From Eledone cirrhosa (Eukaryota): DNA of 64,000 bases. The position numbers were made by a program, and so were the translations under genes. The notes beneath the pieces were generated by a model that was not told where the DNA came from, ran no database searches, and saw nothing but the letters and a program-made list of their open reading frames with translations. Location: contig OZ024741.1 in NCBI GenBank assembly GCA_964016885.1, positions 313,596,001 to 313,660,000 on the forward strand, in the 5' to 3' direction. Of the stretch, positions 1,141-61,180 are shown one piece after another. Each line of letters opens with the position of its first letter. Position 1 is the stretch's first letter.

Positions 1141-1275
1141 AATGCCCAGTGGGAACGTTTGGTGTTGATTGTAAAGGGACTTGCCATTGTATCAACAATA
1201 ATAACTGTGACAAGCGAAATGGAACATGTTCAGATGGATGTTCTGAAGGTTATATTGGTGTCAATTGCCAAGAAG
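1141..1275 (+). CDS. EGF-like exon A1 (internal exon, 135 nt, phase 1-1)
   Basis: ttttag|AATGC...GAAG|gtatat; (E)CPVGTFGVDCKGTCHCINNNNCDKRNGTCSDGCSEGYIGVNCQE, 8 Cys. The ORF track shows only the wrong frame here. Confidence 0.85.
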
Positions 1276-1930
1276 GTATATCATAAAATTGTTACATGCA
1301 TACTATGCACACACACACACACACACGCACACACAGATATCTATTCATATATATTTATTTATACATAAAAATTATATATATACCGTATATGCCGGTGTAA
1401 AAGTTGATCCGCCGAGTATGTCGATTAGTGTATGATTAGTGTACACACACACACATACAGACACACATATATATATATATATATAAACACATACACACAC
1501 ACATTTATATATATATGTATATATACATTTATATATATCCCGTATATGCCGGTTTAACAGTCCACCCATCAAAGTTGTGGTGTAATTCAGGTTGAGGCCT
1601 ATATACGCCGGTTAGACGACACTCCCGGTATAAGGCATTACCATCTCCCCAGCCGTAGATATGCTTGCCGTTGTTTATTTGCACAAAATATAAAATATGG
1701 ATATAAAAACTAAATAGTTGTAAAATTAAAATGCATCTGAGGAAAGTACAACTTGTAAAATTTATTTTTCATTTAACAAAAAGATTTAACTGAACTGTTT
1801 TATTAGTAAACAACATGCTGCCACACCTTCACTTCATATGCCGTTTAGCACAAGACCACTTTAATCTTGAAATTTAATATAAAATTGTATATATATATAC
1901 ATATATATATACACAAATACATTTATATAT

Positions 1931-2050
1931 GTAGCGTATATGCCGGTGTAAAAGTTGATCCGCTGCATATCTCGAGCCATCAAATGTTGTGGTATAAATC
2001 AGGTTTAGGCCTATATACGCCAGTTTAGACGATACCCCTGGTATAAGGGA
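1931..2050 (+). mobile_element. possible pogo/Tigger-like terminal fragment in each monomer (also ~1381, ~4010, ~10365, ~15295)
   Basis: TACCGTATATGCCGGTGTAAAAG...TAAGTCGACCC resembles pogo-type TIRs (TA-CCGTAT..GTATAAG) next to (TA)n. No partner TIR found. Confidence 0.4.
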
Positions 2051-2427
2051 TTACCTTCTCCACAGACGTAGATATGTTTGCCGTTGTTTATTTGCATGAA
2101 ATATAAAACATTAAAATAAAGACTAAATAGTTGTAAGATAAAAATGCATAACAGGAAAGTACAGATTGCAAAATGTATGTTTCAGTTAACAAAATGGTTT
2201 AACTGAAATGTTTTATTAGAAAACAATATCCTACCACACGTGACTTGATACGCGGGAATTTAAAAAACCTCAATATTCCTTATCCAATTTATATCATCTT
2301 AGATGTCGATAAATATCTACTGTCGTCCTGTTTTGTTTCGTGGTGAAATTACTGTAGTTTTCCGATAATTTAGATAATTCAGTGGATCAGGATACCATTA
2401 ATATAATAACTATAATATTAATACTAT

Positions 2428-56368: not shown

Positions 56369-59300
56369 GGGGTAACAAGTTATCGTTATAGGTAATCCAG
56401 TTAGATGTTGTGAGTACTCTGCGTCGTGGATAGTTTTAACGTACGGCTTTGCTTAACTCAACAATATGTTTCCATAGTTAGGGAGCGAGTTCGCGGTAAA
56501 TCCTATGTAGGTTCTACTTGGAGTAATAATAGTGAAAGTATGAAGAGTAACATCGTTGGCTGTGCAACAAGTAGTTTTATGTCAAGTATTGACTATTGTT
56601 TCATTGATCAGGTGAGTCTAGAGGTCGCTAATCGCTTGAAGTTGCTCAATTCGATCTCCATTATATTATTTACTTTAAACCAACTCCTCAGAATACAAAA
56701 AACAATTCACTCAAGGCAAAATATATAGAGAGAAATAGAGTATAATCAAAACAATAACATCAATAATAAAATATATATGATACATAGGTAGAGAGGTTAC
56801 AGATGTAAATGTATAATGTAAAAGATAAGAAAAAGGGTACAGTAAAAAGTAAGGAAATGGAAAAAAATATAAATAAATAAGGATAAGTGAGATCATGTAA
56901 GTACAGTATATGATAGTGGTAGTAGAGAGTCTGATGTAGTGACAGATAAAAGAAAAAGCATAAATTAGAGATTAATGGGGAGATACTAGTATGAGATTTA
57001 AGGGTAAGGGTGGATGTTGAAGGGATCTTTGACAAATGTGTGTAGTAAATATTTTGCTGATTGTCCCGTCTTAATGGATGTGATGCTGTTTCAGGAGAGC
57101 GGGTGAAATAGATGTTAAGATATTTATGATCTAGTGACCAGTTGGTTGTTTGGCAGCTAAGAGCGGTGTGATTGTGTCTATTGCATACGTTGAAATTCTG
57201 GTGGTTCAGTTCTAAATTTGGTATTGTTGGCTCGAATCACGTGGTTTAAAATTTGTGAACTTGGTAGCTATTTTATGCCTACAGAAAATTGATCTTTCTA
57301 TTTTGCTGTTAAGCAGCATCTTATCGTACCTTAAAATATGGAATAGCTCCATATTACAAATTCTGCAGTGGGGCATTCCATTGTCGTTAGCCCTTGCTTC
57401 TGATATTTTGACCAGCTAATCCCATATTCCTGGTTTGTGTTTTTAAGCTGCAAGATTTTATTGGCTTGCGTCGTAGAATTATATAGTCTACGGTTCTTCA
57501 TGGAGTGTCTGTGGACGCACCACCTTTTTTTAAACTCCCCAGCCGTGGAACCTATGTAGTGCCAAGTAGTGTTGCCTGAATTTACAGTACACAGGTACAC
57601 CATACTCGAATCCACGCATCTATTTTGCAGTGTGCACTTATCCGGTAGGTGGCAATTACAGTTGGAGGCTTTTCTTTGTGCCGCTTCTCCGTTGCGGTTT
57701 TGTATGTTCGTTGTGGGTGGGTTGATATTTAGGCCAATTAGTGTTTTGTTGTGATGCGCCCTAGTGTATGTGTGGTTGGGATGTTATGTGTTTGCGTTTT
57801 GTATTTGGTGCTATGATGTATATTGGTAGGTTATTTTCTTTAGAGATGTTTTTGTGGTTGATTTTACGTATGTGTGATTCTATGTTGGCTGCAGTAGAGT
57901 AAGATTGTTTGATAGTTCTTCTATTAAAGAATCTATGGTATTTGAGTAGATTAACAAAGTGTTTGTCTATTAGCTTAAATAATGTAGAAGACAGTTTTGT
58001 TTTTATAGAGGACTTGGATATTGGATTGAACCATAGGTATTTTCTATCATAGGTATCTTCTATGCTTAGTCCTATGCTTGTTATTTCATAAGGTGTGGGT
58101 AGTGTAGTTTTCGTTAGGGTTGTTGCTGCTGTCCCTATCTGGTATGTTTCCAACCCCTCTTTACGTCCTGCCTTATGTATAGCTATATCATAATACTTTG
58201 GGTGTTCGTTAAACATCTCTAGGTTAGAAGGTAGGCTGCATATTCTGAAGGATATACTATGTGCTATGGTGTTAATTATGGATCGGGGGTGGTCGTTAAT
58301 TATGGATCGGGGGTGGTTGTTATTTTATGGAAGGGCTCTATTAATCTGGTGATTAGGTTGAGTGTTACATCTAAGATGTTTGATTTTTTAGAATTAAGTT
58401 CGAACGTAGTACCTAGGCCTAGTTTGTTAAAGAAGGCTCTGATGTTTTTTCGTAATTTTTCCATGTTTTGATTATTTAAGATTTTGTCTAAAAGTAATGT
58501 GTCGTCTCTATAAATTCATCCCTCGTGGTTATTGAATTCCTTATGTAAGTTGTGCGCTATATATATTCACACGAATTCCGTTACCTGTGCCGAGTCGTTA
58601 GATCCCATTGTGATATTGAAGCTATTCTGTCTATTCTTACGTTCCCAGTAACTATTTTCGAATCTAATGATAGTTCTCCTAGTAGCATTATTATTTTAAT
58701 TTCGTCCGAGGTAAGGTACGAATGTTCCTGGGCAAAGGTTAGCGCTTTATCTAGGGTGACTGGGGATATGGATGAGTAGTAGTCATCAATGTGGAACTGT
58801 ACGATGTTGGATGTTTCTCTACTGTCTATTTTGCTGAACCAGTCTATTGCTTCGTTAGTGTTACCCCATACCTTAATTACTAGTTCGTCCTTGATTTGTG
58901 CGATTACACTATCTAGTATATACTTCGCAATTCTATCTATATACGACTTCGATGGGCATATTAATCTAATTGCGGGGTCTATTTCGAAATTATATTTGTG
59001 ATCCTTTAGGTTAAATGTGGGGTTCGAAGGTGCTAGAGGCTTGGTTCTATCAGATGTTTTCAGTTTTTAGAATGCTAAGTCCTTCTTTAATAATGCTAGT
59101 GAGTGCAGATTCTGTTGTTTGTTTGTATTTTTTATGCAGTTCACGACGTACACAATTATTGTATGTATTAAGTCTCATGTCGTATATGCTTCAAGTTTTA
59201 TCTCCTTTTACTATAATACCGTTGGCGTTGCATAGTTCTTTTAGAAGTGTATTGATGTCGTTTTACAATTTGTTGTGATGTGTCATTACTTTGAATTTGG

Positions 59301-60261
59301 TTCCACCTATCATGTTCATGAGGTCGAGTTCGAAGGCATCGAGCTGGGGGTTATTCGGAGGATTTTTCAGGATTTGAATCCGTATATTTTCCTAGTAATT
59401 TCCTCCGTGTTATTAGCGTGTCCTTTATCATAATGATAGGCCTTCCATCGGATTCGACGAATGAAGTCATTAGTCCTTGTTAGTATGTATAGGTATGTTT
59501 TTCAATGACATATCTATGTGGTGATTTTCCATTTTAGTACCGTGCGTTAAAGTTGTTGCTCAACCTAGTGGGAGCTGGGTATATGGGGTAACAAGTTATC
59601 GTTATAGGTAATCCAGTTAGAAGTTGTCAGTACTCTGCGTCATGGATAGTTTTAACGTACTGCTTTGTTTAACTTAACAAGATGTTTCCATAGTTAGGCA
59701 ACGAGTTCGCGGTAATTCCTATGTAGGTTCTACTTGGAGTAATAATAGTGAAAGTATGAAGAGTAACATGGTTGGTTGTACATCAAGGGACTTTGTATGT
59801 TTCGAATATGACTTTTTATGTTAGCAAAAAACCCACCACACAATCCTTATACGAACAACACTTACTCACCACCACCACTATCATACTCTGTACTTACATG
59901 GTCTCACTTATTCTTATTACTTTATATTTTTCCATTTTCTTACTTTTTTACTGTATCTTTTTTCTTATCTTTTACTTTTTATATTTTACATCTGTAACCT
60001 CTCTACCCATTATCATATATATTTTATTATTGTTGTTATTGTTTTGATTATACGCTATTTCTCTCTATATATCTTGCCTTGAGAGAATTGTTTTTGTATT
60101 ATGTGGAGTTGGTTAAAGGTAAATAATGTAATGGATCTCGAGTGCCGCAACTTCGAGCGATTATCGAGCTCTAGACTCACCTGATCAATAAAGCAAGTGT
60201 CAATGCCTGAAATAAGGCCCCGTGTTGTACAGCCAACCATGTTAACCTTCATCCTTTCACT
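56369..60261 (-). mobile_element. Penelope-like family 1, unit 3 copy
   Basis: Colinear; includes ORF 57761-58216 (YLWFNPISKSSIKTKL..LIDKHF). Confidence 0.9.
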
Positions 60262-61045
60262 ATATACACCCTATATTCCGGTGTAAATCTTGATCCGCTG
60301 CATATACGTCCCATCAAATATTATGGTGTAAGTTAGGTTGAAGCCTATAGACACCGGTTGATACGACACACCAGGTATAAGCCATTATCATCTGGCCAGC
60401 CGCAATTATGCTTGCCGTTAACAAAAGGATTTAACTGAAGTGTTTTATTAGTAAACAATATGCTATCACACCCTGACTTGATAGGCGGCATTTTTAAAAA
60501 CCTAAATACTCTTTATCCAGTGTGTATCATTGTTACGTGGCGATATGATTTTACTTTCGACCTGTTTTGTATTGTGGCGAAATTACCGGAGATTTTCCGA
60601 TAGTTTAGATAATTCAGTGAATCAGTATACCATTCATATTATAACTATGATATTCATGATAATATTATAGATATATATGTGTGTATATATTTATGTATGT
60701 ATGTATTTATGTATGTATGTGTGTGTGTATGTGTGTATGTATGCATATATATATATATATACAGTATATTATTGTAGAATATGGTAATATTTGGAAGGAT
60801 TATATATGATATTTTTCTTATAGTATTGTTTGTTACTTTCATAATGTTATTAATATTGCATTTAATTGAACTAAAAATCCAAGTATTTTTTTATAAAGGA
60901 TCGATATAATATTCAATAAATTTACAACTTCATTTGTTTAGCACAAGACCACTTTATTCTTGAAATTTGATATAAGATTGTATCATTGATATATGTATGT
61001 AATTAATGATATCTTCAACATTATCATATATATTGTTAATTTTAG

Positions 61046-61180
61046 AATGCCGAGCAGGAAGGTTTGGTGTTGATTGTAATGGGACCTGCCATTGTATCAA
61101 CGACACGAACTGTAACAAGCGAAACGGCACATGTTTAGAAGGATGTTCTGCAGGTTATGCTGGTGTCAATTGCCAAGAAG
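61046..61180 (+). CDS. EGF-like exon F3
   Basis: [48 protein letters not shown] intact. Confidence 0.85.

Follow-up and report, generated by a model that had tools for sequence, protein, structure and literature searches.

A 64,000-nt window of the Eledone cirrhosa genome contains a tandem series of EGF exons, which raises the question of what gene these exons belong to and whether they form a library for alternative use or the repeats of one long protein. The initial annotation had read them as the interior of a single gene for a diversified, possibly phagocytic, receptor ectodomain.

Exon content of the window

Twenty EGF exon copies were located in the window (Table 1), and the earlier count of 12 intact and 8 disabled exons was reproduced. 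The 12 intact exons are all 135 nt long, bounded by AG/GT, in phase 1-1 and without stop codons, and each encodes eight cysteines and carries N-x-S/T sequons (12 of 12); together they encode nine distinct peptides. Self-alignment gave offsets of 22.0–22.9 kb at 94–98% identity, in agreement with the 22-kb higher-order repeat described previously. Five clean units of seven exons each, 22,137–22,945 bp in length, differ from one another by 1.25–1.87%, and intron divergence in the youngest amplified zone is 1.3–1.9%. The gene-wide copy map shows that the adjoining units are irregular, so that the proposed change of length in steps of four repeats per unit holds for the five clean units but not for their neighbours. 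A 230-nt intronic element at window positions 8122–8350 resembled the second fucolectin exon, however the match was weak (E 0.1–2) and was put down to chance, since copies of the element accompany most of the exons and the majority of them have no open frame.

Table 1. Position of the EGF exon copies, repeat units and terminal exons. Positions with two dots refer to the window, those with the prefix G000:C2 to the genome.
Feature	Position	Strand	Remark
Intact EGF exon, class A	1141..1275	+	
Intact EGF exon, class B	3574..3708	+	
Disabled exon, class C	5811..5945	+	donor GT changed to AT
Disabled 3' half exon, class D	10104..10157	+	
Intact EGF exon, class E	11131..11265	+	
Intact EGF exon, class F	16075..16209	+	
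Disabled exon, class G	20331..20462	+	132 nt, stop, no donor
Intact EGF exon, class A	24042..24176	+	
Intact EGF exon, class B	26449..26583	+	
Disabled exon, class C	28657..28791	+	donor AT, one canonical Cys lost
Disabled 3' half exon, class D	32979..33032	+	donor lost too
Intact EGF exon, class E	34070..34204	+	
Intact EGF exon, class F	39028..39162	+	
Disabled exon, class G	42590..42721	+	132 nt, stop, no donor
Intact EGF exon, class A	46179..46313	+	
Intact EGF exon, class B	48601..48735	+	
Disabled exon, class C	50773..50907	+	donor AT
Disabled 3' half exon, class D	55105..55158	+	
Intact EGF exon, class E	56127..56261	+	
Intact EGF exon, class F	61046..61180	+	
Complete higher-order unit	1141..24041	+	order A B c d E F g, 22,901 bp
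Following complete higher-order unit	24042..46178	+	22,137 bp
Whole window, interior of predicted gene	1..64000	+	gene G000:C2:313,089,081-314,011,385
Predicted signal-peptide exon	G000:C2:313,089,081-144	+	64 nt, phase 1 donor; 507 kb upstream
EGF array	G000:C2:313,106,686-313,927,980	+	~820 kb
Predicted transmembrane exon	G000:C2:314,007,700-805	+	106 nt, phase 1 to 2; about 350 kb downstream
Predicted last coding exon	G000:C2:314,010,623-314,011,385	+	254-aa Glu/Thr/Lys tail; AATAAA ~40 nt past stop

Structure of the predicted gene

The window is likely to be the middle of a single octopus gene of 922 kb, as judged from genomic sequence. Beyond the window both a signal-peptide and a transmembrane exon were found, together with a tail exon; all three are open with intact splice sites, and their phases are compatible with splicing to the array. 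The hydrophobic first exon of 21 codons is conserved in five paralogues (judged by hydropathy), and in those paralogues that were read the single transmembrane exon has an open frame and is hydrophobic. Over the 1.12 Mb examined the plus-strand array is flanked by exactly one exon of each kind, and genome-wide searches revealed no further plus-strand signal-peptide or transmembrane copy between the two terminal exons. The array itself contains 97 intact and 59 dead copies, 156 in total. A search with a general HMM gave 146 matches and no 8-Cys repeat exon in the gene outside the known copies, consistent with the earlier statement that no other exon type was recognised in the window. Introns reach 80 kb and transposon fragments fill the flanks.

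The predicted product is a single-pass, non-enzymatic protein of about 4,670–4,700 aa. The 97 intact repeats contain 164 N-x-S/T sequons and have a mean identity of 77%, giving 70 distinct repeat peptides, and many repeats are exact duplicates. The predicted tail is charged, of low complexity and lacks tyrosine, with no recognised domain above cut-off. The splice donors lack G at +5 in 96 of 97 cases, suggesting that stochastic skipping may be common. A conserved block after the transmembrane exon was examined as a 3' UTR and rejected; it aligns with an intron of the phosphatase gene described below and is therefore an intron. Two candidate micro-exons in the same region were not included in the gene model, as their donors are weak or vary from one paralogue to another.

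Selection and decay of exon copies

The ratio pN/pS at cysteine codons was 0.14 over 38 disjoint pairs of intact exons, compared to 1.24 over 12 pairs of dead exons. In splice-intact copies purifying selection acts on the cysteines, and this, with the terminal exons, supports the original view that the exons are coding and lie inside one gene, here for a single-pass membrane protein. At non-Cys codons the ratio was 1.37 in intact exons, below the dead-exon control of 1.63; with a ratio no lower in dead exons than in intact ones, positive selection at these codons was rejected. The whole-tree omega of about 1 (0.99) and the death of 59 of 156 copies indicate weak constraint outside the Cys/Gly scaffold.

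Within the recently amplified zone a cysteine had been lost in 0 of 46 intact copies compared to 4 of 8 donor-dead copies (p=2e-4), each loss being a different change. Stop codons or frameshifts were found in 4 of 101 AG/GT-bounded copies and in 20 of 40 splice-dead copies, although these copies are not independent. A plausible silencing feature accompanies each of the four frame-breaking AG/GT copies: one is entirely enclosed in the hairpin predicted to form between it and an inverted copy (-277.7 kcal/mol, z -30), and the other three share an acceptor variant present in 27 of 40 dead exons compared to 3 of 93 canonical exons. These four copies, the first of which sits early in the gene, are presumably skipped in splicing. 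The symmetric exons of this one gene show a clean cycle of birth, silencing and decay.

Paralogues and descent

At least 40 matches to the signal-peptide exon were obtained, 23 on C2, 16 on C10 and one on C1149 (40 of 59 candidates scored). Four compact paralogues with the same order of signal peptide, EGF repeats and transmembrane helix gave 5, 9, 8 and at least 32 repeat matches, or 4, 7, 7 and 29 by the strict AG/GT count. This range of about 5–30 repeats compared to 97 in the giant gene upholds the earlier proposal that repeat number is altered by tandem amplification. The tails of the paralogues vary in frame and in length (75–772 aa) and are minisatellite-derived.

The fucolectin-EGF-PTP gene of the same genome at C2:257.5 Mb has a transmembrane acceptor and donor homologous to those of the giant gene. 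The intron following this exon is 66–78% identical between the two genes and the next acceptor 72% identical over 140 nt. These common introns point to descent from such a receptor, with loss of the lectin and the phosphatase. The same weak donors are found in the ancestral-type phosphatase-receptor gene. The phosphatase tail once envisaged for the window's gene was not borne out, as no PTP domain was matched in C2:310-315 Mb by searches that scored all 113 and all 87 of their candidates. Near the cluster lectin (F5/8C) exons were located only at C2:314.023 and 315.461, and none was found in the giant gene; the exon at C2:314.023 was excluded from it, since it lies 3' of the tail and is read from the other strand.

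Octopus gene models contain 10–14 such repeats in series, and the Octopus relatives with the closest repeats, among those retrieved, all carry a lectin domain. P0157 is a 323-aa Octopus fragment without a recognised flanking domain. By pattern count the largest repeat number among retrieved relatives (273 proteins) was at most 26, and among the 150 relatives listed there were at most 42 matched stretches; the giant member with 97 repeats lies far beyond their range. A description of this cephalopod family was not found in the titles and abstract openings searched, and the model presented here is a precise one for a gene that annotation would probably fragment.

Comparison with known receptors

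When the repeat profile was compared with the structures of Tie2 and SCARF1 the matches were weak (E 0.008–0.02). The Atlas neighbours of the repeat are laminin-EGF/PEAR1-like clusters and its Pfam matches fall below cut-off. The likeness to MEGF10, Draper, CED-1 and SREC noted previously is retained in that the repeat is of MEGF/SREC/Tie type, however membership of the MEGF10/Draper/CED-1 group is not. MEGF10, MEGF11, Draper, CED-1, PEAR1 and SCARF1/SREC likewise have tandem 8-Cys repeats and type I topology, while the cysteine spacing in the second half of the repeat is C-x3-C here compared to C-x-C in every sequence checked from MEGF10, Draper and SCARF1. An N-terminal EMI domain is a defining feature of MEGF10/Draper/CED-1. 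The EMI profile (PF07546) gave seven matches from 25 candidates, none of them in C2:313.0-314.1 Mb, a search that exon-split domains can escape. Draper signals through ITAM and NPxY tyrosines (PMC6219719), and these are absent from the predicted 254-aa tail. On the predicted exon chain, with no EMI match and no tail tyrosine, the giant gene is not Draper/MEGF10, and a phagocytic receptor that signals by itself is no longer indicated.

By architecture and cluster layout the closest known systems are the SCARF-like single-pass receptor clusters of Biomphalaria, reported to be statistically tied to schistosome resistance. Members of their TM1 subgroup 1A are similarly clustered, with a signal peptide, MEGF10/SREC/Tie2-like repeats and one transmembrane helix, and the Biomphalaria genome also has relatives that carry a fucolectin (1B) or a phosphatase (1C) domain in addition, as does Eledone. 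Unlike subgroup 1A, the giant gene has 97 intact repeats, a length of 922 kb, a 22-kb unit, 59 dead exons and a minisatellite-derived tail. The cytosolic part of 1A is small and has no recognised domain; the predicted tail here likewise gave no domain above cut-off, but with 254 aa of low complexity it is not small. The C-x3-C repeat is shared with the fucolectin(F5/8C)-MEGF-receptor tyrosine phosphatases of Octopus sinensis/vulgaris (P0001, P0002 and P0010; best 31 of 44 residues identical). These have at most about 15 repeats, and neither their lectin nor their phosphatase exon was found in the giant gene. SudRes1 of B. sudanica is another molluscan receptor of this fucolectin-MEGF-phosphatase kind (PMC12297450). 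Rather than founding a class of its own, the giant gene is an extreme variant of a known receptor type. With it, the range of clustered SCARF/MEGF-like single-pass receptors widens from Biomphalaria to a cephalopod. An immune or adhesive role is suggested solely by analogy with the Biomphalaria clusters.

Proposed function and alternative explanations

On balance, a single ~922-kb gene with mostly constitutive splicing would, slightly more probably than not, encode a type I protein that serves on the cell surface as a tether or a scavenger-type binding rod, long and without signalling of its own. Its order would be a signal peptide, about 97 disulfide-locked, N-glycosylated repeats of 45 residues, one transmembrane helix and a tyrosine-free tail. 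A fucolectin-EGF-phosphatase receptor may have lost its lectin and both phosphatase domains and given rise to clusters of at least 40 genes, in which unequal crossing-over would alter repeat number, latest through the 7-exon, 22-kb unit. Symmetric exons could be added in frame, or silenced by splice-site loss and then decay with the frame kept, which suggests that the evolving trait is length and valency rather than new binding surfaces. Signalling would require a partner, for instance one of the ancestral phosphatase receptors, to which the giant protein could be a decoy or co-receptor.

A structural or barrier protein, that is a glycosylated membrane-anchored disulfide rod serving as glycocalyx-like layer or mechanical tether without a specific ligand, is rather unlikely. 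The abundant sequons, the conserved scaffold with neutral surface residues and the tail without signalling motif would suit it, and octopus uses the 29 tandem EGF repeats of octovafibrin mechanically (PMC10336842). Octovafibrin is however secreted, with 6-Cys repeats, C-type lectin ends and no transmembrane segment, and the ancestry and cluster layout at this locus fit receptor families; the barrier and tether-rod readings overlap, and sequence alone does not separate them. Less probable is a decaying or truncated member arising by neutral runaway duplication, from which no full-length protein is made, or only a short secreted one that terminates at an early stop. The 38% of dead copies, the omega of about 1, the four frame-breaking AG/GT copies, the long introns and the transposon-rich flanks are compatible with decay. 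Against this, cysteines are kept specifically in splice-intact copies even in the youngest zone, lesions are concentrated in splice-dead copies and the three terminal exons remain open and spliceable.

Dscam-type mutually exclusive clusters are tandem arrays of symmetric, equal-length paralogous exons. A comparable library here, in which regulated skipping or exclusive choice of exons yields many ectodomain isoforms, is improbable, although all exons are phase 1-1 and could be skipped in frame, the donors are uniformly weak, 70 peptides are distinct and the dead copies must already be skipped. No docking site was found, with 0 docking/selector complementarity matches for 72 shared 12-mers in four 3-kb regions by a simple exact 12-mer test. 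The weak donors recur in the ancestral phosphatase-receptor gene, annotated Octopus relatives include repeats in series, and the repeats are near-duplicates with a non-Cys pN/pS below that of dead exons, so the diversified library first proposed is disfavoured. Two genes, or a mis-join, placing the window in a gene of at least 71 repeats without its 5' end, is also quite improbable. A 200-N assembly gap at C2:313,344,137 leaves 26 intact exons of the array on one side and 71 on the other and could conceal a gene boundary, the repeat organisation shifts around it and paralogues are packed head to tail. Orientation and exon family are nevertheless equal on either side, only one signal-peptide and one transmembrane exon were found overall, and five units that differ from each other by 1.25–1.87% are more than two haplotypes could supply. 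A speculative and improbable extension is that in an octopod lineage a lectin-phosphatase receptor gave rise to 40-plus genes for catalytically stripped 'ruler' receptors whose reach is set by exon copy number (about 5 to 100); leaky splicing of the giant member and copy-number variation of its 22-kb unit would then give a length-coded recognition at a resistance-type locus, with ectodomain lengths and repeat orders particular to the animal, perhaps even to the cell.

A single-exon word search gave no candidate. AlphaFold was run on one exon and gave a pLDDT of 43, which was not used. Three read runs over the transmembrane-exon region covered the introns continuously, as DNA does, and so say nothing on expression. 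The full exon chain was predicted from genomic sequence, and selection was assessed by pairwise counts and whole-tree omega.

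Organization of the EGF exon array

Self-alignment of the window confirmed the higher-order repeat of 22–23 kb proposed in the initial annotation, whose inventory of 12 intact and 8 disabled EGF exons was exact. The intact exons are each 135 nt long, with AG/GT ends, phase 1-1, eight cysteines and no stop, and encode nine distinct peptides. The disabled exons comprise three with an AT donor, two of 132 nt that contain a stop and lack a donor, and three 3' halves. Five clean higher-order units of 22,137–22,945 bp, with an intron divergence of 1.25–1.87%, lie in and beside the window; as five mutually distinct copies exceed the supply of two haplotypes, they were taken as real duplications. 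The window occupies positions 313,596,001–313,660,000 of contig C2 in a genome of 3.0 Gb. When a single exon was used as query, the 150 candidates scored out of 1,352 were located in C2:310.4–315.1 Mb, C2:230.4 Mb and, on a second contig, C10:25.9–27.3 Mb.

A conserved intronic element (window 8122–8350; about 230 matches in the array) adjoins almost every exon once or twice; its conservation is about that of the exons, and most copies lack an open frame. The introns also contain open frames of 100–293 aa (window 21295–22173, 43532–44410, 7048–7350, 35311–35760 and 57334–57783 (minus strand)), duplicated along with the higher-order unit. By eye these resemble retrotransposon fragments, and they gave no Pfam matches above cut-off.

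Structure of the predicted gene

A region of 1.12 Mb (C2:312.936–314.06 Mb) was examined in full, and the terminal exons were located by comparison of flanks with compact paralogues on C10. Extending beyond the window in this way revealed predicted signal-peptide and transmembrane (TM) exons, consistent with the earlier proposal that the window is the interior of one gene, here predicted to encode a TM protein.

Terminal exons of the predicted gene on contig C2
Feature	Position	Strand	Length	Remarks
Signal-peptide exon	C2:313,089,081	+	64 nt	Phase 1 donor; kept in five paralogues
Transmembrane exon	C2:314,007,700	+	106 nt	Phase 1 to 2
Last coding exon	C2:314,010,623 (start)	+		Phase-2 acceptor common to C2 paralogues

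The interval from the + strand signal exon to the TM exon contains 156 repeat copies, of which 97 are intact. Every canonical cysteine is present in 93 of the intact copies, one of the 97 is 132 nt long, and 70 distinct peptides are encoded. A general repeat HMM, built on 400 of the 683 distinct repeats of the retrieved proteins, found no further repeat exons in the gene. The predicted exon chain, well supported as a model, spans 922 kb, of which EGF exon accounts for 1.4%, and gives a product of 4,673 aa with 164 sequons. The last coding exon arose from a minisatellite of 12 nt; its 254 residues include 94 Glu, 50 Thr, 46 Lys and no Tyr, and an AATAAA lies approximately 40 nt past the stop.

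An intact-looking EGF exon at C2:313,042,629, upstream of the signal-peptide exon and between two head-to-head genes, is an orphan or belongs to a remnant gene. In alignments, the TM exons (C2:314,007,700–805 and paralogues) gave the unquantified impression of being more diverged between paralogues than the following intron, and genome matches to the TM block mostly begin at the end of the TM exon.

Paralogues and origin of the family

The signal-peptide block gave 40 matches (40 scored of 59 candidates), 23 on C2, 16 on C10 and one on contig C1149, while 26 of the 40 scored matches to the TM block belonged to the family and the remaining 14 reflected a repeat within the query. All 31 candidates for the tail acceptor were scored, and it was confined to C1149 and the C2 cluster, so that a dispersed repeat is excluded. 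On C10, four paralogues contain 5, 9, 8 and no fewer than 32 repeat matches (one gene being partly covered), and the window's gene has the largest span among family genes with placed ends. The paralogue tails differ in frame and length (75, 79, 116, 420 and 772 aa), and this variation speaks against signalling through a sequence-specific motif. Those of 772 (C2:311.907–311.910 Mb) and 420 aa are long open minisatellite frames in different reading frames; two C10 paralogues have an earlier acceptor and poly-Asp tails, and in one paralogue the tail-exon acceptor block is repeated in tandem about eight times (C2:314,974,373–314,991,548).

Among annotated proteins, those of Octopus sinensis and O. 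vulgaris have the most similar repeats (31/44 residues), which makes an octopod the most likely source of the genome. Over the full length, the best matches are fucolectin(F5/8C)-EGF-TM-phosphatase proteins. Genes of this type are present in the same genome at C2:230–233, 257.5 and 261.7 Mb. The gene at 257.5 Mb and the window's gene share both splice sites of the TM exon, the intron after it (66–78%) and the acceptor of the next exon (72% over 140 nt), and the closest repeats (35/44 residues) belong to a lectin-bearing gene at 230.4 Mb. No lectin exon was found inside the window's gene, and no phosphatase exon, as suggested for the receptor tail, was found in C2:310–315 Mb. The simplest reading of these sequences is that both the lectin and phosphatase domains were lost and the body of the juxtamembrane exon was swapped for minisatellite; the direction of change is inferred from how widely the full form occurs in molluscs rather than from a rooted tree.

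Approximately 25 near-identical fucolectin-like exon copies occur at C20:3.5–5.3, C27:13.1–15.4, C16:0.58–0.71, C23:28.9–29.1 and C22:1.68 Mb, often 100–150 kb apart, a second amplification of very recent date that may involve large segmental repeats. Intronless phosphatase-domain frames of 390–1,250 aa, possible retrogenes, were observed at C22:17.64, C14:9.15–9.16 (three in tandem) and C10:12.09 Mb.

Selection and splicing of the repeats

Only splice sites and stops decided whether a copy was called intact, so that cysteine retention provided an independent test. Among intact exons, 38 disjoint nearest pairs gave a cysteine-codon pN/pS of 0.14, compared to 1.24 for 12 dead pairs. In the youngest zone (313.48–313.73 Mb) all cysteines are kept in 46/46 intact copies, while one is missing, by a different change each time, from four of eight donor-dead copies. 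This retention is specific to intact copies and therefore indicates recent protein-level selection on the exons. A diversified library was not borne out, as pN/pS at other codons was lower in intact than in dead exons (1.37 and 1.63), whole-tree omega was 0.99 compared to 1.43 for dead copies, and mean identity between repeats was 77%. Owing to gene conversion and shared ancestry, all of these counts are approximate.

The frame is broken in 4 of the 101 AG/GT-bounded copies, and these may plausibly be skipped in splicing. The stop-bearing copy at 313,190,919 is predicted to lie, together with both its splice sites, inside a fold-back (C2:313,190,840–313,191,460; −277.7 kcal/mol) with an inverted copy 200 nt downstream, a modelled structure through which inverted duplication may have silenced the exon. 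Inverted partners at distances of up to 5 kb were found for none of the 97 intact exons and for 4/156 copies overall. The other three frame-breaking copies have an extra upstream AG, a feature of 27/40 dead compared to 3/93 canonical copies, and two of them lack the last exon base. Donors are weak throughout (+5 G absent in 96/97), as they are in the ancestral phosphatase-receptor gene.

Comparison with known systems

In contrast to Draper/MEGF10, whose repeats the array resembles according to the initial annotation, the window's gene has no tyrosine motifs in its predicted tail, and membership of that group was rejected. At LG5R of Biomphalaria glabrata there are clustered signal-peptide-repeat-TM genes, some of which also carry fucolectin and phosphatase domains (PMC13712769), and SudRes1 of B. 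sudanica contains many MEGF and MEGF-phosphatase paralogues (PMC12297450); the architecture is thus already known in molluscs. Association with schistosome resistance is reported for both regions (PMC13712769, PMC12297450); according to the LG5R study, the causal genes there are not identified (PMC13712769). No description of the cephalopod family was found in the open-access literature searched. Novelty lies in its scale, in amplification through a higher-order unit that includes dead exons, in tails made of minisatellite and in the shared introns that point to its origin.

Proposed role and alternatives

The explanation preferred from sequence, with a little over an even chance of being correct, is a non-signalling type I binding or spacing rod whose repeat number would be altered in frame. 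The protein would carry a disordered, charged tail on a glycosylated rod that is very long and locked by disulfides; a laminin-type EGF unit measures approximately 3 nm per module, at which a reach of a few hundred nanometres is possible. As it has neither an enzyme nor tyrosine motifs, its role would be binding or spacing and not signalling, whether by itself or next to the phosphatase receptors. Its length could change in frame by unequal crossing-over, and copies may be retired by splice-site loss.

The likelihoods assigned to this rod and to the alternatives are not mutually exclusive. A ligand-free barrier role, which overlaps with the binding rod, is unlikely, and decay of the window's gene is more improbable still. 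Combinatorial splicing of the array, which together with diversification had been proposed initially and is unsupported, is doubtful to a greater degree, and a simple complementarity test for docking sites was negative. Least probable is a pair of genes split at the assembly gap C2:313,344,137, where 200 N divide the intact exons 26/71; the 1.12 Mb region contains a single TM exon and, on each strand, one signal-peptide exon.
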